From positions 1 to 42,535 of the forward strand of contig JAICNA010000001.1 of assembly GCA_025928955.1 (NCBI GenBank): a DNA stretch of 42,535 bases, in the 5' to 3' direction. Positions 2,087 through 42,535 of the stretch are shown piece after piece. The notes beneath the pieces are model-generated. The model saw only the letters and a list, made by a program, of their open reading frames with translations. It was not told the DNA's origin and did not search any database. Numbering within the stretch: position 1 is the stretch's first letter; each line of letters opens with the position of its first letter. A program made the position numbers and the translations under genes. The DNA comes from Gemmatimonadales bacterium (GTDB lineage Bacteria > Gemmatimonadota > Gemmatimonadetes > Gemmatimonadales > GWC2-71-9).

Positions 2087-3007
2087 CTAGTTCTGCGCGG
2101 CGAACTCCCGGACGCGGTCAGGGTCGCCGGATTCGCGCAGCTCGCGCAGCGCGGTCGTGGCACGGAGGAGGAGCTCGACCGCATCGACATCCGACGCCCC
2201 GAAGTCGCTCACGGCGCAGTAGCCGGCGCGCAGGCGGATCGGGCCGTTCCCTTCCCGCGCAACGCCCGCCGCCTCGACCACCCCGCCGAGCCGCTCGGCG
2301 AGACGCATCGCCCCGGCCGGGCCGGTGGCTGGAGCGATGACCGCGAACTCGCCATGCGCCAGGCGCCCGACCGCATCCGAGGTCCGGCCCGCCTCGCGGA
2401 ACACGCGCCCGATGCGCTCGACGACGCCGCTCGGCTCGTGGTCGAGCGCGGGACCGTGATCCGGCGAGAACACCACGCACGAGAGGGGCTGGTGGCGGCG
2501 CTGCGCCTCGGAGCCGATCTCCCGGGCGCGGCGCGCGAGACCACGCATGTTATAGAACCCCGTGAGGGTGTCGAGCAGCGTATCGTCCCGGAGGGCGTCC
2601 ACCTCGAGCTTCGACTGGACGAATGTCCGCAGCTTGAGGAGGAGCGCCTCCCCGTCCACCGGCTGCCCCAGGAACTCCCAGGCGCCGGCGCGGTACGCTT
2701 CGAGGCGCTGCGCGCGACCCGAGGGTCCGCTGGTCGTGATGATGATCGGCGTGGTCGCGCTGAAGCGGGGATCGTCCCGGAGCATGCGGCAGACATCGAA
2801 TCCATGGATGTCCGGCATCTGCGCGTCGAGGATGATCAGGTCGGGCCGCTGCGTCCGCGCCTGGTCGAGTGCCTGCTGGCCGGTGTGTGCCCTGACGACG
2901 GCGTAGCCGTTGGGCGCCAGGATGCTTTCCAGCGAGCGGGCCGACCACTCCTGGTCGTTCGCGACCAGGACGAGCGGCGGTTGAACGGCGTCATCTCTCT
3001 GTGCCAT
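2087..3007 (-). CDS. Response-regulator receiver domain fused to a degenerate GGDEF domain (AHGEF in place of GGDEF, RxxD I-site retained)
   Basis: Receiver: 'LVLVANDQE...DLIILDAQMPDIHGFDVCRML...PIIITTSG'. GGDEF-domain start: 'DTLTGFYNMRGL'. Motif region: 'RTSDAVGRLAHGEFAVIAP'. Confidence 0.85.
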   Translation of the reverse strand: MAQRDDAVQPPLVLVANDQEWSARSLESILAPNGYAVVRAHTGQQALDQARTQRPDLIILDAQMPDIHGFDVCRMLRDDPRFSATTPIIITTSGPSGRAQRLEAYRAGAWEFLGQPVDGEALLLKLRTFVQSKLEVDALRDDTLLDTLTGFYNMRGLARRAREIGSEAQRRHQPLSCVVFSPDHGPALDHEPSGVVERIGRVFREAGRTSDAVGRLAHGEFAVIAPATGPAGAMRLAERLGGVVEAAGVAREGNGPIRLRAGYCAVSDFGASDVDAVELLLRATTALRELRESGDPDRVREFAAQN

Positions 3008-3644: not shown

Positions 3645-3700
3645 CGGGTTGGCCTCTTTGCCGCGGGGGTGAGTCGGGTCACAGGACAGAACGCACGACG

Positions 3701-3798: not shown

Positions 3799-4539
3799 AT
3801 GCAGATGTCACTCGAACGGGTGCTGTTGCTTGGAGCACTGTTCCTCGCGCCGACGTCCGCCCTGGCGCAGACGCCGGTGCCGTCGGACCGCGCTCGGGCC
3901 ATGGCCACCCGTGCCGAGCTGCAGGCGCTCGCGTCGACCTCGAAGTCGGATGAGGACCGCGCCGTGGTTCAGGCCCGCCTCACCGACGGCGATTTCCAGC
4001 CCGGCGATCTGATCGCCCTCTCGGTCATCGAGGACTCCACGCTGACCGACACATTCACGATCCGCGCGGGCCGTACCCTCAAACTCCCCAACATTCCCGA
4101 GGTCTCGCTCCGCGGTGTGCTGCGCTCGGAGCTGGACAGCGTCCTCACCAGGCTGGTGGGCGAATACGTCCGCAACCCGCAGGTCGACGCGGTCGCGCTG
4201 ATCCGGGTCGCGGTGCTCGGCGCCGTGAACCGGCCGGGGTTCTACTCGGTTCCTGCCGAGACGCCCGCACCGCAGGTCGTGATGATCGCGGGTGGACCGG
4301 GCCAGAATACCGACCTCGAGAAGGTCGAAATCCGTCGGGGCGAGGTAGTCGTGCTGGATCGCGAGGAAATGAGCACGGCCTTTGCTTCAGGTACCTCGAT
4401 CGACCAGCTCAACGTCCTCGGCGGCGACCAGTTCTTCGTCGGCGAGAAGAGCGGCGGCTGGAAGGGGACCTTGCAGACGGTCGGGCTCATTACCGGACTC
4501 CTGTCGGGTATCTACTTCGCCACGCGACTTTTCGAGTAA
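3799..4539 (+). CDS. Polysaccharide biosynthesis/export protein (Wza/EpsE-like; Poly_export + SLBB)
   Basis: Signal peptide 'MQMSLERVLLLGALFLAPTSALAQ'. Motifs 'PGDLIALSVIED...IRAGRTLKLPNIPEVSLRGV' and 'VLGAVNRPGFYSVP'. GGAG lies 13 nt upstream of the ATG. Confidence 0.85.
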   Translation: MQMSLERVLLLGALFLAPTSALAQTPVPSDRARAMATRAELQALASTSKSDEDRAVVQARLTDGDFQPGDLIALSVIEDSTLTDTFTIRAGRTLKLPNIPEVSLRGVLRSELDSVLTRLVGEYVRNPQVDAVALIRVAVLGAVNRPGFYSVPAETPAPQVVMIAGGPGQNTDLEKVEIRRGEVVVLDREEMSTAFASGTSIDQLNVLGGDQFFVGEKSGGWKGTLQTVGLITGLLSGIYFATRLFE

Positions 4540-5331: not shown

Positions 5332-6219
5332 ATGACCGCAACCGTCAAGCCTTTGCCGATCCTGGCGCTCACCAGACGGCCCGCCGCAGCATTGCCGGTC
5401 GCCGTGGCAGCGATCGCGTTCGCCGTGCTCTTTGCGCAGCCGATCCGGAGCCTCGCCGCGGAGTGGTGGAACAACCCGGAAGCCGGGCACGGGCTGCTGC
5501 TCGCGCCCCTCGCCGTGTGGCTCGCGTGGCGCCGGGGGATCGACCCGGCCGCCCGGAGCCAGGTGATCTTCGGCTCCGTCATCATCGTCGGCGCCGTGCT
5601 CCTCCGGTATCTCTCCGGCCTCGCCGCCGAGATCTTCACGATGCGAGTCTCCGCCCTCATGGCGCTGGCCGGCGTCGTGGTGTTCGCGGCGGGCTGGCGC
5701 CAGGTGCTCCGCTGGTGGCTGCCGTTCACCATCCTCTTCCTCTCGATTCCATGGCCCGCGCTGATCACCACCGCGCTGGCGCTTCCACTTCAGTTCCAGG
5801 CCTCGCAGATGGGCGCGGCACTCCTCGAGATGCGCAACGTGCCGGTCATGCTGCAGGGCAACGTCATCCAGATTCCCGGGCACCGGCTGTTCGTGACCGA
5901 GGCATGCAGTGGCCTTCGCTCGCTCACGGCACTCCTCAGCCTCGGCGTTCTCGTCGGGGGCCTCTGGCTCCGCTTTCCCGTGAGCCGGCTCCTCGTGCTT
6001 CTGCTCGCCATCCCGGTGGCGATCCTGATCAATGCGGTGCGGGTCTTCCTGACGGGCTTCCTCGTCTACTTCGTCGATCCCAAGCTGGGCGAGGGCTTCA
6101 TGCACGTGACCGAGGGCTGGCTCCTCTTCGTCGTGGCCTTCGCGATGCTCGGCGCGATCGCCTGGCTCGCGAGCAGCATCGAGCGGCGCGTTCGGCCGGA
6201 GGCGGTGGCAGATGCTTGA
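5332..6219 (+). CDS. Exosortase (XrtA/EpsH-like transpeptidase for PEP-CTERM proteins)
   Basis: N-terminal motif 'AAEWWNNPEAGHGLLLAPLAVWLAWRR'. Catalytic-type Cys 'FVTEACSGLRSL', Arg 'INAVRVFLTG' and His 'FMHVTEGWLLF'. Polytopic membrane protein. An alternative GTG start lies at 5311. Confidence 0.85.
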   Translation: MTATVKPLPILALTRRPAAALPVAVAAIAFAVLFAQPIRSLAAEWWNNPEAGHGLLLAPLAVWLAWRRGIDPAARSQVIFGSVIIVGAVLLRYLSGLAAEIFTMRVSALMALAGVVVFAAGWRQVLRWWLPFTILFLSIPWPALITTALALPLQFQASQMGAALLEMRNVPVMLQGNVIQIPGHRLFVTEACSGLRSLTALLSLGVLVGGLWLRFPVSRLLVLLLAIPVAILINAVRVFLTGFLVYFVDPKLGEGFMHVTEGWLLFVVAFAMLGAIAWLASSIERRVRPEAVADA

Positions 6220-11621: not shown

Positions 11622-13499
<1,878 letters not shown>

Positions 13500-13600
13500 G
13501 GGTACCCGATATCGCAAAACACGACGGCATCCCGCTCGATTTCCGACTGCAACACCTTGCATAATCCGCAGTTATAGCGGCATATAGCCGCTCAATTCAC

Positions 13601-13616
13601 TGGCAGGAATATTGCC
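13601..13616 (+). promoter_or_regulatory. Sigma-54-type promoter candidate (TGGCAG-GAATA-TTGCC)
   Basis: Near-consensus -24/-12 elements with exact spacing, in a low-GC island. It lies upstream of the riboswitch-like leader and the 13828 start codon. Confidence 0.5.
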
Positions 13617-13669
13617 AGTTGGTCGGACACCCCTGAAGGATCATTACCAAGGGAACGGCCACCGTTCCC

Positions 13670-13760
13670 GCGCTGCTCAGAGCAAAGCCGCCGAAAGGCG
13701 GTGACGCAGAGCCACGGGGCTACCGCGAGCCATTCGCGACGCCAGCCGAGCCGCCAGCGC
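13670..13760 (+). promoter_or_regulatory. GEMM-I (c-di-GMP-I)-like riboswitch aptamer, copy A
   Basis: RNA reading: (G)CGCUG-CUCAGA-GCAAA-GCCGCC-GAAA-GGCGGU-GACGCAGAGCC-ACGGGGCUAC ... CCGC-CAGCG(C). There is a GAAA-capped 6-bp hairpin (13687-13702) and junction motifs GCAAA and GACGCAxAGCC. A closing helix can form between 13670-13675 and 13755-13760. Confidence 0.6.
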
Positions 13761-13827
13761 CGACACACCCTTGCCCGGGTGTGGCTCGCCGGCGGCCTGT
13801 TCGCGTCCCGACCTCGAGGAGACCCCA

Positions 13828-16131
13828 ATGACGTACCGGCACAAGCTTTCCCGCCGTCTGGCCATGCTGCGCAACAGCGTGCTTCTCGGCCTGACGCTTA
13901 CCGCAGCGGGCTGCCGCGATAACGGGCCTTTGGGCTCAACTCTCGACCCTCTAGATTCCCACAGTGACATCATTGCGCTGCTCGCGTCCTCGGATAATCC
14001 GACCGTGGCGCCGAAGCAGCCGACCCCGATGCGGGTGGTGGCCCTGACCAAGGGGGGCAGCCACCAGTCCATCGAGGCCGATTGGATGGCGCTGGATGGT
14101 GGGCTCCTGCGGGACAGTCTGGTCGGGAAGGAGCTGGTGACCTTCTTCAGCGCCGACGAGCCGGGGGAATACCGCCTCGTGAGCTTCGACCGGGGGAAGC
14201 GGTTCCGGGACACGACCCGGGTCACCGTTCCGAGCCAGAACGTGAGCATCGCCCAGATCTTCGTCTCTCCCGCGATCGCCGCGCTCGTTGCCGGCGCTTC
14301 GCAGCAATTCTATGTCTACGGCACCAGCGAGACCGGGGATAGCGTTCCGGTCGCCGCGGTGCTGCAGCACGCGCCCGGCGGCACACCCAGCGGCCTCGTC
14401 TATACGGCCGGCGATACCGCGGGCGAGTATACCCTCACCTTCAAGCAGCAGGGTGGCCCGGCCACGGTGAACGCGACTGTCGCGGTCACCGTTCCCAAGC
14501 TCGAGTCGCCGGTCGCGGATCCGCTGCCGGAGCCGTCACCCGAGCCGACGCCGGAGCCGACCCCGGAGCCCACGCCCGAGCCGACTCCGGAGCCCACGCC
14601 GACACCCGAGCCGCTTCCCGGCGTCGGTGAGTCACCCGCGGAAATGCCGCGCGTCTATCTCGATACCCGGTACCAGGCGCCGGGCGGGCGGACGATCGTG
14701 GTGCCGAACGGCGGCGACCTCCAGGGCGCGCTCAATGCCGCGGTCCGCGGCGACGTGATCGAGCTGGCGGCAGGCGCGGTGTATACCGGCAACTTCGTGC
14801 TCCCTGCCAAGGCAGGCTCCGGCACCATCGTGCTGCGCACGGCGACGACCCTGCCGGCGGAAGGTGTCCGTGTCACGCCGGCGCAGGCGGCGGGCTACGC
14901 GCGGATCGTCACGGCGAACTCGATGCCGGCGCTGCGCACGGCAGCCGGCGGGACGGCCGGCGGCTACCGGATCATGGGCGTCGAGATCACGTCGAGCGCC
15001 TCGATGTCGTACTCGATCGTCCATATCGGCGATTACGACAATCTGGCGTCCAGCGTGGACATGCTCCCCGCCGATGTCGTGTTCGACCGGGTCTACATCC
15101 ACGGCAGCACGTCGAACGGCATCCAGCGCTGCATGGTCCTCAACGCGCGGGCAAGCGCGGTGGTGGACAGCTGGATCTCGGAGTGCCACATCAAGGGATT
15201 CGACTCCCAGGCGATCGTGGCGTGGCTCTCCCCCGGCCCGCTCAAGTTCGTGAACAATCACCTGGCGGGCGCAGGCGAGAACCTCATGATCGGCGGCGCC
15301 GACCCGCGCATCTCGGGGCTCGTCGGCTCCGACATCGAGATCCGCCGCAATCACTTCTACAAGCCGCTGAGCTGGAAGACGTCCGGCGCGTGGACGGTGA
15401 AGAACTCGTTCGAGCTCAAGAACTCGCGCCGCGTGCTGGTGGAGGGCAATCTCTTCGAGAACAACTGGAGCGACGGGCAGACCGGTTTCGCCATCGTCCT
15501 GAAGTCCATCAACGACGGCGGCCGCTGCACCTGGTGCGTCACGGAGGACGTGACCTTCCGGTACAACAAGATCGTGAACTCGCCAGGCGGCATCAATCTC
15601 GTCGCCGTGCAGGCCTATAACGGTGGCGGGGCGATTCCGGCCAACAGCATGCTCATCGCCCACAACGTGTTCGAGGACGTGGGCCTCAACTCGGCGATCG
15701 GCGACCGGCGCATCTTCCAGTTCATCGGCCAGCTCAGCAGCATCGTCGTCGAGCACAACACCGCGTTCGGCGAGAACGCCGCCGTCATGTTCGACGGGTA
15801 CCCGGCGAGCGGGCTCGTGTTCCGCAACAACCTCCTGCTCCGCGGGCAGTACGGCGTCTTCGGGAGCGGGAAGGGCGAGGGCAAGCCTGCGCTCGACTAC
15901 TTCGCGCCAGGGGCGGTCTTCGCCGGCAACCTCGTGATCGGCGCGAATCCGTCGATCTATCCGACGGGCAACTACTTCCCGGAGAGCGTGCTGACCGTCG
16001 GGCTGGTCGATTACGCCGGTGGCAACTACTCGCTTTCCTCGGGCAGCACCTACTACACCTCGGGCGTCGGCGGCCGCACCCCGGGGGCGGACTGGAGCAA
16101 GCTGTCGCAGCTCATCTCCGGGATTCGCTAG
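13828..16131 (+). CDS. Secreted (probable lipo)protein: Big2-like Ig domain(s), Pro-Thr linker, right-handed parallel beta-helix domain (candidate glycanase/lyase/epimerase)
   Basis: ATG at 13828 (GGAG 8 nt upstream) inside ORF 13771..16131. Signal sequence 'MTYRHKLSRRLAMLRNSVLLGLTLTAAGC'. Big2-like 'IFVSPAIAALVAGASQQFYVYG'. Linker '[29 protein letters not shown]'. Beta-helix-like repeats: 'IEIRRNHFYK', 'VLVEGNLFENNW', 'VTFRYNKIVNSPGG'. Confidence 0.8.
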   Translation: MTYRHKLSRRLAMLRNSVLLGLTLTAAGCRDNGPLGSTLDPLDSHSDIIALLASSDNPTVAPKQPTPMRVVALTKGGSHQSIEADWMALDGGLLRDSLVGKELVTFFSADEPGEYRLVSFDRGKRFRDTTRVTVPSQNVSIAQIFVSPAIAALVAGASQQFYVYGTSETGDSVPVAAVLQHAPGGTPSGLVYTAGDTAGEYTLTFKQQGGPATVNATVAVTVPKLESPVADPLPEPSPEPTPEPTPEPTPEPTPEPTPTPEPLPGVGESPAEMPRVYLDTRYQAPGGRTIVVPNGGDLQGALNAAVRGDVIELAAGAVYTGNFVLPAKAGSGTIVLRTATTLPAEGVRVTPAQAAGYARIVTANSMPALRTAAGGTAGGYRIMGVEITSSASMSYSIVHIGDYDNLASSVDMLPADVVFDRVYIHGSTSNGIQRCMVLNARASAVVDSWISECHIKGFDSQAIVAWLSPGPLKFVNNHLAGAGENLMIGGADPRISGLVGSDIEIRRNHFYKPLSWKTSGAWTVKNSFELKNSRRVLVEGNLFENNWSDGQTGFAIVLKSINDGGRCTWCVTEDVTFRYNKIVNSPGGINLVAVQAYNGGGAIPANSMLIAHNVFEDVGLNSAIGDRRIFQFIGQLSSIVVEHNTAFGENAAVMFDGYPASGLVFRNNLLLRGQYGVFGSGKGEGKPALDYFAPGAVFAGNLVIGANPSIYPTGNYFPESVLTVGLVDYAGGNYSLSSGSTYYTSGVGGRTPGADWSKLSQLISGIR
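14521..14619 (+). repeat. Imperfect 12-nt tandem repeats encoding a (PEPT)n linker
   Basis: ccggagccgacc-type units repeated about 6 times, in frame within the CDS. Confidence 0.7.
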
Positions 16132-16168: not shown

Positions 16169-16202
16169 AAAACCGCGCCGGTCCATCCGGCGCGGTTTTT
16201 TT
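16169..16202 (+). terminator. Rho-independent terminator
   Basis: AAAACCGCGCCGG (16169-16181), loop TCCAT, CCGGCGCGGTTTT, with a 7-T run ending at 16202. It lies 38 nt after the stop at 16131. Confidence 0.85.
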
Positions 16203-16438
16203 CGACGCCCGTTTCGCGCCGCAAACCGTCGAATAATTCGACAAAGCTCCGCAGTTATACGGAGCAAGCACCAACGATCACTTGTTGCAAGTTGTTGCTG
16301 TTAAACAATCTGTATTATTGTGATCCCGGTCACAGCACCCATTTCCAGTCAGTCCTAGTTTCCCGCAGCTCTCCGGAACCCCCTCGCAGAGCTGCCCGGG
16401 CAAGAGAAGTCTCGACTGATCTTCCCACCCGTACCATC

Positions 16439-16523
16439 CGCTGCTCAGAGCAAAGCCGCCGAAAGGCGGTGACGCAGAGTCACGGGGCTACAGCCACGCG
16501 CCATGCCCGCCGGACCGCCAGCG
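16439..16523 (+). promoter_or_regulatory. GEMM-I (c-di-GMP-I)-like riboswitch aptamer, copy B
   Basis: 16439-16491 is identical to 13671-13723 except for one transition at 16480. The closing-helix partner CAGCG lies within the conserved CCGCCAGCG (16515-16523). Confidence 0.6.
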
Positions 16524-16598
16524 ACGACGCACGCCTTTGTCCCAAGGTGCGCCGCCCTGGCGGTCGCCTGCCCTGTTGACACGCATCGAAGGAAACCG

Positions 16599-19319
16599 AT
16601 GACCTACCGTCACCTCCTGTCCCGCCGGACGGCCCTGCTCCGACGTGCCACGTTCCTCAGCATGCTCGCGCTTCCCGCATGCTCCGACTCCTTCTCCCCC
16701 CTCGACAAACCAGCTGAATTCTCCGCCACCGCCGTCAAGCTTCGCGCGCGGGCCGATCACCCGGTCATCGCCGTTGCGCACTCGACCGCCCTCCGCGCAA
16801 ATGCCGTCGATGCCGACGGGGCGCGTCCGGCGCTCGATGCCGAATGGAAGTCGCTCGACGGCGGCGAGCTGCGTGACTCGGTGATCGGTTCCGAGACCGT
16901 CGCCGCCTTCTCCGCCAGCACGCCCGGGACCTACCGGCTCGTGAGCTCGAGCCAGAGCCTCTCGGCGTCCGATACCACCATCGTCATCGTCCCGAGCGCC
17001 GCGCAGACGAGCGCCATCACCAGCCTGGTGATGACGCCGGAGCGGACCTCGCTCCGGACCAACGATACGCTCCGGTTCGTCGTCCACGGCGTGACCGCCA
17101 CCGGGCAGCAGGTGCCGGCGCCGGTGTCGCTCCTGCCGGATCGCGGGTACGTGGTGGGCATGCGCTATCACTCGCGCATGGACGGCACGTTCACGGTCCG
17201 CGCGCTCCTGAACGGCGGCGCCGTCATGGACTCGGCCACGGTCACGGTCTCGGCCAACGCGGCGCTGCAGCACGACCCCGACAACGCGCCGACGCCGGCC
17301 CCCGCGACGCCGAGCGCGCCCGGACAGATCGCCCGCGTCGTGATCTCGCCCGCCCAGGTGACGCTGCGCGTGAACGACACGCTGCGCTACTGGATCCGGG
17401 GCATCACGCAGGGTGGCGATACGATCGACGCGCCCAACGTGTCGCTCGTCCCCGATCGCGGCTACATCATCGGGCGCAACAAGTACGTGTCGCGGCTGAC
17501 CGGCACGTTCGTGGTGCGCGCGGTGCTCAAGGGGTCGACACTCGCCGATACCTCGGTCGTGACGGTGACGACGGACGCCCCGTCGTTCCCGGTCGGCGAG
17601 CCCGTGCCCGAGCCGGCACCCGCGCCTGCCCCTGCGCCGGGGCCGGAGCCGACCCCCACCCCGACCCCGACGCCTACACCGACGCCGACGCCGACTCCCG
17701 CACCGGAGCCAGCTCCGACGCCGACCCCGGAACCGACCCCGACGCCGGAACCCGCACCGACGCCGGTGCCTGAGCCGACGCCGGAACCCGAGCCGACGCC
17801 GGTGCCGACACCCGCGCCCGATCCGTCGACCAGCGGCCTCGCCGAGCTCCCGCGCAGCTTCGTGGACACGCGGTATCCGGCGCAGACCGGACGCACGATT
17901 TCGGTCGGCGCCGGCGCGAACCTGCAGACCGCGATCAACAACGCCGCACGCGGCGACGTGATCGAGCTCGCCCCCGGCGCCGTCTTCAACGGCAACTTCG
18001 TCCTTCCCGCCAAGGCGGGCACGGGGTGGATCACGATCCGCACGGCCACGTCGCTGCCCCCGGAAGGCGTGCGCGTCACGCCGGCCAGCGCCGGCAATTT
18101 CGCGAAGGTCGTCACCGGGAACTCGATGCCGGCGCTGCGCACCGCGACGAGTGCCGCCGCGAGCTATTACCGGATCGTCGGTGTCGAGTTCCGCAGCTCC
18201 GCGCCGATGACGTACGCCATCGTCGACCTCGGCGACTACACCGATACGGCGACGGATCCGAGCCAGCTCTCGTCCGACATCATCCTCGATCGCGTCTGGA
18301 TCCACGGCAGCTCGACCCAGACGATCCAGCGTTGCCTGGCCCTGAACAACCGGCGGAGCGGGATCATCGACAGCCGCCTCTCCGACTGCCACATCGCCGG
18401 CGGCGAGGCGCAGGGCATCGCAGGGTGGTACGGGCCCGGGCCGTTCAAGATCGTCAACAACTACATCGAGGGCTCGGCGGAGAACATCATGTTCGGCGGC
18501 GCCGATCCGAAGTTCTCCGGCCTCACGCCGGCGGACATCGAGATCCGACGCAACCACCTGATGAAGCCGCTCAGCTGGCGCGGGGTCTGGTCGGTCAAGA
18601 ACCTGCTCGAGCTCAAGAACGCACGGCGGGTCCTCATCGAGGCGAACATCCTCGAGAACAACTGGGCCGACGGGCAGACCGGCTTTGCCGTGGTGCTCAA
18701 GTCGCAGAACCAGAGCGGCCGGTGCACCTGGTGCGTCACCGAGAACATCACGTTCCGCTACAACCGGGTCATCAACTCGCCGGGCGGCATGAACATCCTC
18801 GCCGCACAGGCGGAGAATGGCGGCGGCGCCCAGGCGGCCAACCGCATCTCGATCGTCCACAACACCTTCGAGAACGTCGGCCGGCTGAGCCAGGCCGGCG
18901 ACCGCCGGATCTTCCAGGTGCTCGGCGCGCTGCGCGACGTGCGCATCGAGCACAACTCCGCCCTCGGCGAGGACGTGGCGGTCATGTTCGATGGCCAGCC
19001 GACCGTCCGGCTCGTGCTCCGGAACAACCTCCTTGCCCGCGGCCAGTACGGCATCTTCGGCAGCGGCCGGGCGGAAGGCAGCACGGCGCTCAGCTACTAT
19101 GCGCCCGACGGCATCGTCGCGGGGAACGTCATCGTCGCCGCGCCGACCTCGATGTATCCTGCGAACAACTACTATCCGAGCAGCACGAGCCTGCTCGGCT
19201 CGCTGAGCGACGGCGTCATGCTGTCCTCGGGCAGTACGTACTGGAACAAGGCGACCGACGGCACCATGATCGGCGCCGACGCGAACCGCCTGCAGGAGGC
19301 ACTCTCGGGCGTCCGCTGA
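16599..19319 (+). CDS. Secreted (probable lipo)protein, larger paralog of 13828..16131: extra Big2-like domains, long Pro-Thr linker, beta-helix domain
   Basis: ATG at 16599 (AGGA upstream) inside ORF 16503..19319. Signal sequence '[28 protein letters not shown]'. The C-terminal ~480 aa are colinear with the paralog: '[23 protein letters not shown]', '[10 protein letters not shown]', '[19 protein letters not shown]', 'RCTWCVTE'. Confidence 0.8.
17598..17825 (+). repeat. Low-complexity Pro/Thr/Ala/Glu linker-coding repeats (~75 aa)
   Basis: '[74 protein letters not shown]'. Confidence 0.7.
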
Positions 19320-37637: not shown

Positions 37638-37653
37638 TGGCACTCCTCTTGCC
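37638..37653 (+). promoter_or_regulatory. Sigma-54 promoter (TGGCAC-TCCTC-TTGCC), exact consensus match
   Basis: TGGCAC-N5-TTGC lies 94 nt upstream of the rfbF-like ATG, in the divergent intergenic region. Confidence 0.55.
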
Positions 37654-42362: not shown

Positions 42363-42535
42363 CAGGATCACGCAAGGAACGGGTGCCGGGTCACGAGCCT
42401 CGTCCAGGCCCGGGACGCAATAGTTCTGCCAGCCTCGACCCTCCGAAACTAGCCCGACCCCGAGCCCAGCGCAGCGACAGGTTCCGCTTCTGCGGCGCCG
42501 TTGCGGCGTCGCCACAGGAGCGTGGCCACGCCGGA

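Follow-up and report, generated by a model that had tools for sequence, protein, structure and literature searches.

Two GEMM-I leaders that probably serve as independent cyclic-dinucleotide riboswitches of paralogous lipoprotein genes in a Gemmatimonadales exopolysaccharide locus

Two neighboring paralogous genes of a Gemmatimonadales bacterium (assembly GCA_025928955.1, contig JAICNA010000001.1) are each preceded by a leader carrying nearly the same stretch of 53 nucleotides (nt), and the locus raises the question of why the leaders resemble each other so much more closely than the genes that follow them. We refer to the whole stretch of DNA that was analysed, 42,535 nt in length, as the window, and to the upstream and downstream paralogs as gene A and gene B. 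The two 53-mers, at 13671-13723 and 16439-16491, are 98% identical and differ only at C13712/T16480, which confirms on the sequence the single transition reported in the first-pass annotation of this DNA. In a global alignment the coding sequences of A and B are 63% identical (53% for the proteins and 49% at four-fold degenerate sites), 15 of their first 48 coding bases differ, and even their best-conserved coding blocks, as located by a repeat finder, reach only 70-74% DNA identity; the leaders are indeed better conserved than the genes. A second conserved block, CCGCCAGCG, lies at 13751-13759 and 16515-16523, as had been described. A search of the window allowing up to 8 mismatches recovered the 53-mer at 13671-13723 and 16439-16491 only.

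Both leaders belong to the GEMM-I fold. An Rfam scan of the window returned exactly two matches, both full-length, both on the plus strand and both to the family c-di-GMP-I (GEMM-I, RF01051), with scores exceeding its gathering threshold of 35 bits (Table 1). The conserved blocks correspond to the parts of such an aptamer: the 53-mer consists of the 5' strand of helix P1 (CGCUG), the junction CUCAGA, hairpin P2 (GC-AAA-GCCGCC-GAAA-GGCGGU-GAC-GC), AGAG and the 5' strand of P3 (CCACGGGGCUAC), and CCGCCAGCG comprises the ligand-pairing C, equivalent to C92 of the Vc2 riboswitch, followed by the 3' strand of P1 (CAGCG). The pairing CGCUG:CAGCG constitutes helix P1, which is unpaired in the Rfam model. 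Outside the 53-mer the A and B aptamers are 78% identical. Aptamers of the same family precede orthologs of A and B in the loci L001-L003, L004, L006, L008, L100, L152 and L183 (L-numbers denote loci fetched from other genomes or metagenomes for comparison), and there is hardly any variation across the phylum in the junction CUCAGA or in the 3' block GCCGCCAGCG. The explanation that we favor, and hold with good confidence, is that the leaders are independent GEMM-I riboswitches sensing a cyclic dinucleotide, one on each transcript of two paralogous lipoproteins with immunoglobulin (Ig)-like and beta-helix domains.

The pairing of the aptamer is supported by covariation among relatives. These were collected with a pattern scan of 185,579 species genomes for the variant of the aptamer that has adenine at position 20 (A20, discussed below), which located at least 120 loci; the counts of relatives given in this work (70, 102, 112, 114 and 121 elements) rest on the matches listed from that scan. 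The matches listed are mostly from Gemmatimonadota, with others from Nitrospirota, Acidobacteriota and Desulfuromonadales/Geobacter. In an alignment of 70 relatives, 97.0% of the cells in the 25 aptamer pairs are paired, compared with 85.3% in shuffled alignments, and 17 of the 25 pairs have changed on both sides. None of 500 shuffles matched the observed value on any of five measures, and sliding the pairing partners reduces pairing to only 25-48%. Helix P1 is perfect in 105 of 121 non-redundant elements, in which it takes the forms CGCUG:CAGCG, CUUUG:CAAAG, UCCUG:CAGGA, CUCUG:CAGAG, CCAUG:CAUGG and others. Even the single difference between the two 53-mers is compensated, as C13712-G13750 in A corresponds to U16480-A16514 in B. 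The architecture of P1, P2 with its GNRA tetraloop, and P3 is kept by compensatory change.

Comparison of orthologous leaders indicates what maintains the 53-mer. Between the window, L001 and L003, four-fold degenerate sites of the orthologs are only 57-60% identical, yet the 53-mers differ at 0-1 positions among A orthologs and at 0-2 among B orthologs, and when every leader is compared with every other the range is 0-4; each paralog also keeps its own diagnostic base, distal P3 and expression platform in all three genomes. Since the 53-mers and the paralog-specific bases persist despite such divergence at neutral sites, we conclude that the leaders are under strong purifying selection and that recent conversion between them is excluded; the proposal that selection acts on an RNA structure, as opposed to the residue of a recent duplication, is thereby upheld. 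The more distant A orthologs of L004 and L006 differ at 9-11 of the 53 positions, largely through swapped P2 base pairs, and this shows that the block is able to change, for the most part through compensated substitutions. All occurrences of the element precede genes encoded in the same direction, and it is dispersed solely as a multi-copy riboswitch. The RNA is genuine and under strong selection; it is a further instance of a riboswitch class already known, its expression platform is conventional, and what is new about it is limited to the phylum, to the genes it regulates and to a ligand pocket of the A type.

The first-pass annotation had also described a hairpin downstream of each aptamer, with stems that differ and still pair, namely CACACCC-TTGCCC-GGGTGTG at 13764-13783 in A and CGCCTT-TGTCCC-AAGGTG at 16532-16549 in B. 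The sequences, coordinates and preserved pairing are correct, but the hairpins are not free-standing: in minimum-energy folds each caps a longer, terminator-like stem that competes with P1 (Table 1). The 5' strand of the long stem (GCCGCCAGCG in A, GACCGCCAGCG in B) takes in the ligand-pairing C together with the foot of P3 and the 3' strand of P1, and its 3' strand (CGCCGGCGGC in A, CCCUGGCGGUC in B) mimics the 5' strand of P1 and lengthens it. Aptamer and long stem are mutually exclusive because both use the same nucleotides of P3, the C92-equivalent and P1 (13750-13759 in A, 16513-16523 in B). In predicted folds, enforcing P1 gives at best a structure that is less stable than the stem state by 16 kcal/mol in A and 11 kcal/mol in B. 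Almost every relative has the same layout, in which GGCCGCCAGCG, a small variable hairpin and CGCUGGCGGCC are usually followed by a run of U. Pairing in the main helix of this stem reaches 94% in relatives, with GC-to-AU swaps at two positions, and the 10 nt after the stem contain on average 5.1 U, compared with 1.6 U in a control interval 20-30 nt further on; at least five U follow the stem in 61 of 114 elements among the matches listed.

It had further been suggested that the loops of these hairpins could pair with the GGGGC of the aptamer and thereby compete with its folding. Complementarity of 4-5 nt does exist in the window, but it is not above chance, as shuffled loops give 4.6 nt. Over 102 relatives among the matches listed, the longest pairing has a mean of 2.59 nt, while shuffling the loops, of which C makes up 29%, still gives 2.48 nt. 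Nor do L006 and L183, in which the aptamer reads GGAGC, have a compensating change in the loop. Loop-aptamer competition was rejected on these grounds.

In the mechanism that we propose, the long hairpin would form in the absence of ligand and expression would be low, whereas in the presence of ligand P1 and the base of P3 would retain CCGCCAGCG, leaving the hairpin incomplete and the gene expressed. Ligand binding should turn genes A and B on, because the layout is that of a standard riboswitch terminator and follows the logic of the GEMM-Ib riboswitches of Geobacter. In the latter, loss of ligand lowers expression and a mutation that weakens the terminator bypasses the ligand (PMC6456294).

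The identity of the ligand depends largely on one base. In the Vc2 riboswitch G20 reads one guanine of cyclic diguanosine monophosphate (c-di-GMP). With a provisional mapping of the Vc2 numbering onto the Rfam model, the spacing of 27 nt between positions 20 and 47 obtained here agrees with that in Vc2 and Gs1761 (PMC5888326, PMC6140456). In the Rfam alignment both window copies have the equivalents of A47 and C92, but lack the canonical G20: at this position, the unpaired base immediately 5' of the first P2 pair, the Rfam consensus shows a strongly conserved G, and both copies and every A or B ortholog have an A (CAGA-GCAAA). Adenine at the G20 position of Vc2 (A14 of Gs1761) is the base that defines GEMM-Ib (PMC6140456), and both copies carry it. 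Riboswitches for cyclic GMP-AMP (cGAMP) have A at position 20, and a G20A mutant binds both ligands (PMC6140456); natural A-type aptamers range from selective ones to those binding both (PMC6140456, PMC5888326), and binding of c-di-GMP, by way of a protonated adenine, persists in A20 variants and in GEMM-Ib RNAs found in nature (PMC6140456). With this GEMM-Ib signature at the G20 position, the candidate ligands are 3',3'-cGAMP and c-di-GMP, the latter contacted by the adenine, and the RNAs may respond to both.

One alternative, which we regard as a serious contender somewhat short of probable, is that both RNAs are plain c-di-GMP riboswitches in which the adenine merely tunes affinity and no second ligand is involved. 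c-di-GMP-I is the best-matching Rfam family, the capacity of A20 and GEMM-Ib RNAs to bind c-di-GMP is documented, exopolysaccharide clusters are a classic c-di-GMP target, and a REC-GGDEF-like protein is encoded in the locus. It is less readily reconciled with the variety of aptamers in Gemmatimonadota. Among aptamers whose bases were not forced by the search pattern, A20 always occurs with GCAGAG (8 cases, all of them A or B orthologs) and G20 always with GCAAAG (15 cases); in viral contigs, 120 pattern matches included 7 with a plausible P2, too few for this link to be assessed. The two forms coexist in Gemmatimonadota as distinct lineages with different platforms, and in six loci of this phylum an A20-type aptamer with a terminator stands in tandem with a G20-type aptamer in one leader, and a Shine-Dalgarno sequence with its start codon comes immediately after the G20-type aptamer (Table 1). 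All twelve tandem aptamers exceed the Rfam thresholds, and three of the G-type ones are assigned to the c-di-GMP-I-GGC variant. Such coexistence is hard to reconcile with plain c-di-GMP sensing because both types would then read the same signal in the same way. Moreover, the same extended signature is found in Geobacter and Desulfuromonadales, where A20 aptamers constitute the cGAMP class (PMC6456294). The presence of two conserved aptamer types with different platforms in one leader suggests different inputs, and the tandem leaders could act as two-input gates.

It is also possible, although we advance this tentatively, that the leaders are riboswitches of the GEMM-Ib type and respond in the cell to 3',3'-cGAMP, which would extend cGAMP signalling to Gemmatimonadota. 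The adenine shared by both copies and all orthologs, the terminator-based ON layout resembling that of Geobacter GEMM-Ib (PMC6456294), and the coexistence and tandems with G20-type aptamers are in favor of this. However, A20 is necessary and not sufficient for selectivity, since among natural A20 aptamers there are some that accept either ligand (PMC6140456). A cGAMP synthase was not observed; a regular-expression search of the fetched loci for Hypr-type GGDEF proteins returned four GGDEF domains that all have the canonical Asp, a result that carries little information, and a literature search gave no report of cGAMP signalling or of these riboswitches in Gemmatimonadota. A broader proposal, which we consider possible but less likely than not, is that A20/GCAGAG represents a distinct GEMM-I specificity class for 3',3'-cGAMP or another non-c-di-GMP dinucleotide, with G20/GCAAAG reading c-di-GMP and the tandems forming a two-signal gate. 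The A20/GCAGAG form has many copies in Gemmatimonadota, Nitrospirota and Acidobacteriota. If the proposal were true, A and B would be part of an unrecognised cGAMP regulon of surface Ig-like/beta-helix proteins, in a phylum for which the literature searched has so far reported no cGAMP messenger.

Several observations weigh against our interpretation of the leaders as ligand-responsive terminator switches. The tails that follow the two stems in the window are poor in U (4 of 10 nt in A and 2 of 10 in B), and downstream of gene A this genome does use a canonical terminator, with a run of seven U. Pair changes on both sides of the outer stem are not above those in shuffles (226 of 500), and covariation there is modest because the outer stem is so conserved. 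The sole GGDEF protein of the window is degenerate (AHGEF), the stretch examined for a cGAMP synthase being 42.5 kb of the genome. Finally, the promoters of both transcripts are predictions from conserved boxes. Because the tails are U-poor while the genome has a textbook terminator, we infer termination at the window sites from homology alone, and intrinsic termination there may be weak.

The same tails lend some weight to an account that we consider unlikely, according to which the hairpins of these two copies have ceased to be intrinsic terminators and control expression by other means, such as Rho-dependent termination, RNA stability or translation; the suggested loop-aptamer competition would be one form of it. 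The low U content of the tails is conserved within the A and B ortholog groups, tails contain fewer U in genomes of higher G+C (Spearman -0.43, p = 6e-6), and a single-sequence fold pairs GGGGCU of the aptamer with the ribosome-binding region of gene A. This region is, however, unpaired in the consensus fold of nine A-type leaders, and long-range sequestration of the gene A ribosome-binding site was rejected as it is not kept in that fold. B-type leaders have no conserved anti-Shine-Dalgarno segment, and the loop-aptamer complementarity, which equals the shuffled expectation, shows no covariation.

That the near-identity of the 53-mers reflects a recent gene conversion between the leaders, with no selection on the RNA, is very improbable: the P2 stems of A and B in the clade of the window are identical to each other, yet unlike those of the distant A orthologs in L004, L006, L100 and L183, but this shared sequence is the consensus of the wider family, and the C/U base with its partner, the distal P3 and the whole expression platform are paralog-specific in three genomes with about 40% neutral divergence. 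Gene conversion was rejected on account of these conserved paralog-specific bases. In addition, 33 of 112 elements among the matches listed, from other species-level genomes and upstream of unrelated genes, lie within 3 mismatches of the window 53-mer, a count in which the search pattern had itself set 22 of the 53 positions. The 53-mers of A and B are thus alike because both are close to the phylum-wide consensus of the aptamer core.

The genes that we propose to be controlled by these riboswitches encode lipoproteins of similar construction. Their start codons, ATG at 13828 in A and ATG at 16599 in B, lie at similar distances from the 53-mers, as had been noted, but these distances are 104 and 107 nt, the starts being one base earlier than first counted. 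The proteins are 49% identical over 678 residues of their C-terminal part. The predicted structure of protein A (mean predicted local distance difference test score, pLDDT, of 78) comprises a signal/lipobox region, two Ig-like domains, a disordered Pro/Thr-rich linker and a right-handed beta-helix, for which the top structural matches are alginate lyases of polysaccharide lyase family 6 (PL6), chondroitinase B and the HK620 tailspike; a profile search with protein A also reaches a PL6 alginate lyase. Many of the open reading frames (ORFs) downstream of the relatives' aptamers encode the N-terminal Ig-like region of protein A, and the domains found in 102 ORFs downstream of A20-type aptamers in other genomes, among the matches listed, include Big_2 (48), Big_1 (30) and fn3 (20). 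Distant homologs of the beta-helix, with 40-45% identity, were observed in other soil bacteria (metagenome loci L025, L073, L082, L047, L009, L031 and L076), and canonical G20-type GEMM-I aptamers are found near them on the same strand. Because these distant homologs also lie near G20-type aptamers, the link between this beta-helix enzyme family and cyclic-dinucleotide riboswitches is wider than the A/B pair.

The transcripts of A and B are divided by the intrinsic terminator that follows gene A, and each gene therefore has its own switch. This terminator was read by eye; a promoter and terminator pattern scan missed it and detected no sigma-70 promoter. Upstream of aptamer A lies a candidate sigma-54 promoter, with a predicted start at about 13627, and boxes of this type (TGGCA-N6-TTGC) occur three times in the window, compared with an expectation of 0.11. 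The candidate promoter of transcript B has the spacing of a class II promoter and is conserved in four genomes (the window, L001, L003 and L152), with a predicted start near 16368, about 70 nt before the aptamer. On these predictions, transcription of A and of B likely begins upstream of the respective aptamer. Hairpin B is kept in the B orthologs of L001, L003 and L152, and a homologous stem is present in the 70 relatives.

Two observations concern the B leader in other lineages. In L004 the leader of the B gene (12263-12558) has no aptamer at all, and in L006 the aptamer of the B-gene leader (5507-5593) is weakened (41 bits, with a CUAGAG junction and a CAAA loop); in both loci the aptamer of the A gene is strong. 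Because the B leader has lost or weakened its aptamer in these cases, the second switch appears to be dispensable in some lineages.

The surrounding locus is an exosortase-type exopolysaccharide cluster in a window with a G+C content of 68.5%. It encodes a chain-length regulator/kinase-like protein, Poly_export, a sugar transferase, exosortase EpsH, EpsI and Wzy, together with many glycosyltransferases, two AsnB-like amidotransferases, a UDP-glucose dehydrogenase and a heparinase II/III-like protein. The closest relatives of gene A are found in Gemmatimonadales genome bins, at 86-88% identity. The gene order AsnB, gene A, gene B is shared with L001, L003 and L004, and in L006 the A-B pair is placed after Wzy. 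The REC-GGDEF protein of the window is, from its sequence, probably inactive as a cyclase, and could be a dinucleotide receptor or a regulator of the polysaccharide locus.

Table 1. Features of the two leaders and of the surrounding locus. Coordinates refer to the window unless a locus is named.
Feature	Coordinates	Strand	Details
Aptamer A	13671..13759	+	P1 13671-13675:13755-13759; G20-equivalent A13681; A47-equivalent A13708; C92-equivalent C13754; Rfam match 13671-13758, 58.0 bits; covariation
Aptamer B	16439..16523	+	P1 16439-16443:16519-16523; junction CUCAGA 16444-16449; P2 (GAAA tetraloop) 16450-16475; P3 ~16478-16516; Rfam match 16439-16522, 52.9 bits; covariation in 70 relatives
Ligand-contact equivalents of aptamer B	G20 = A16449; A47 = A16476; C92 = C16518	+	Rfam alignment
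Terminator-like hairpin A	13750..13796	+	5' strand GCCGCC.GCG 13750-13759; tip 13764-13783; 3' strand CGC.GGCGGC 13787-13796; tail CUGUUCGCGU 13797-13806
Terminator-like hairpin B	16513..16565	+	5' strand GACCGCCAG 16513-16521 + G16523; tip 16532-16549; 3' strand CUGGCGGUC 16557-16565; U-poor tail GCCUGCCCUG 16566-16575
Hairpin GGGAACGG-CCA-CCGUUCCC	13651-13670	+	Abuts 5' end of P1 of aptamer A; identical in L001, L003; absent from B leaders
Gene A, 767 amino acids	13828..16131	+	Lipoprotein signal, two Ig-like domains, Pro/Thr-rich linker, beta-helix resembling PL6 polysaccharide lyases; Shine-Dalgarno GAGGAG 13816-13821
Gene B, 906 amino acids	16599..19319	+	Lipoprotein signal, Ig-like domains, Pro/Thr-rich linker, right-handed beta-helix; Shine-Dalgarno GAAGGA 16588-16593
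Canonical intrinsic terminator after gene A	16169..16202	+	CCGCGCCGG-TCCAT-CCGGCGCGG + seven T; 9-bp GC stem, 5-nt loop
Candidate sigma-54 -24/-12 promoter	13601..13615	+	TGGCAG-N5-TTGC; 56 nt upstream of aptamer A; conserved in L001, L003; putative function
Conserved palindrome TGCAACAC(C/A)TTGCA	13549-13562		~40 nt upstream of sigma-54 box 13601-13615
Other sigma-54-type boxes	37638-37652 (+); 42417-42431 (-)		Window pattern count
Candidate promoter of transcript B	16319..16361	+	CRP/FNR-type palindrome TGTGA-N6-TCACA 16319-16334 (perfect) and -10-like TAGTTT 16356-16361; putative function
CRP/FNR-type palindrome, one mismatch	3668-3683	+	Before Poly_export gene at 3799
REC + degenerate GGDEF protein	2087-3007	-	AHGEF replaces GG[D/E]EF; only GGDEF protein in window
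A20/G20 tandem leaders	L114 4669-4914; L128 6752-7016; L144 5346-5619; L198 45-287; L171 724-995 (-); L182 2602-2874 (-)		Rfam

The analysis gives two regulatory RNAs, together with their expression platforms, a firm annotation in a soil phylum that has received little study. Through them cyclic-dinucleotide signalling is connected with a pair of lyase-like surface proteins in an exosortase polysaccharide locus, a plausible control point for the building or remodelling of a biofilm matrix. The replacement of G by A in the ligand pocket is common to more than 100 elements in environmental genomes, several of them in tandem with canonical aptamers, and this raises the question of whether 3',3'-cGAMP signalling extends well beyond Geobacter.

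In terms of known systems, the window copies share the fold of the Vc2 riboswitch of Vibrio cholerae (RF01051), with P1 closing two hairpins, a GAAA tetraloop of the GNRA type and its receptor side, and they have kept A47 and C92. They differ from canonical c-di-GMP-I aptamers in the change of G20 to A and in having G as the base after A47 (GCAGAG, compared with GCAAAG). Tandem c-di-GMP-I arrangements described in Geobacter and Bacillota (PMC12452182, PMC6456294) likewise place more than one aptamer on a functional set of genes, but in the window the aptamers are on separate leaders, split by a terminator and a candidate promoter, and true tandems of A20 and G20 aptamers occur in related genomes and not in the window. 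The Geobacter GEMM-Ib riboswitches, such as Gs1761 upstream of pgcA, belong to another phylum, and the U-tracts of the window copies are decayed. Both have A at the G20 position, and the extended signature of the window is also present in one Geobacter genome bin and in Desulfuromonadales genome bins. The Geobacter elements are ON switches in which P1 and the 5' arm of a terminator use the same nucleotides, and they form a multi-copy regulon upstream of surface or extracellular proteins (PMC6456294, PMC6140456); the window copies appear to resemble them in both respects, with a terminator-like stem and a direction of switching predicted from this shared layout.

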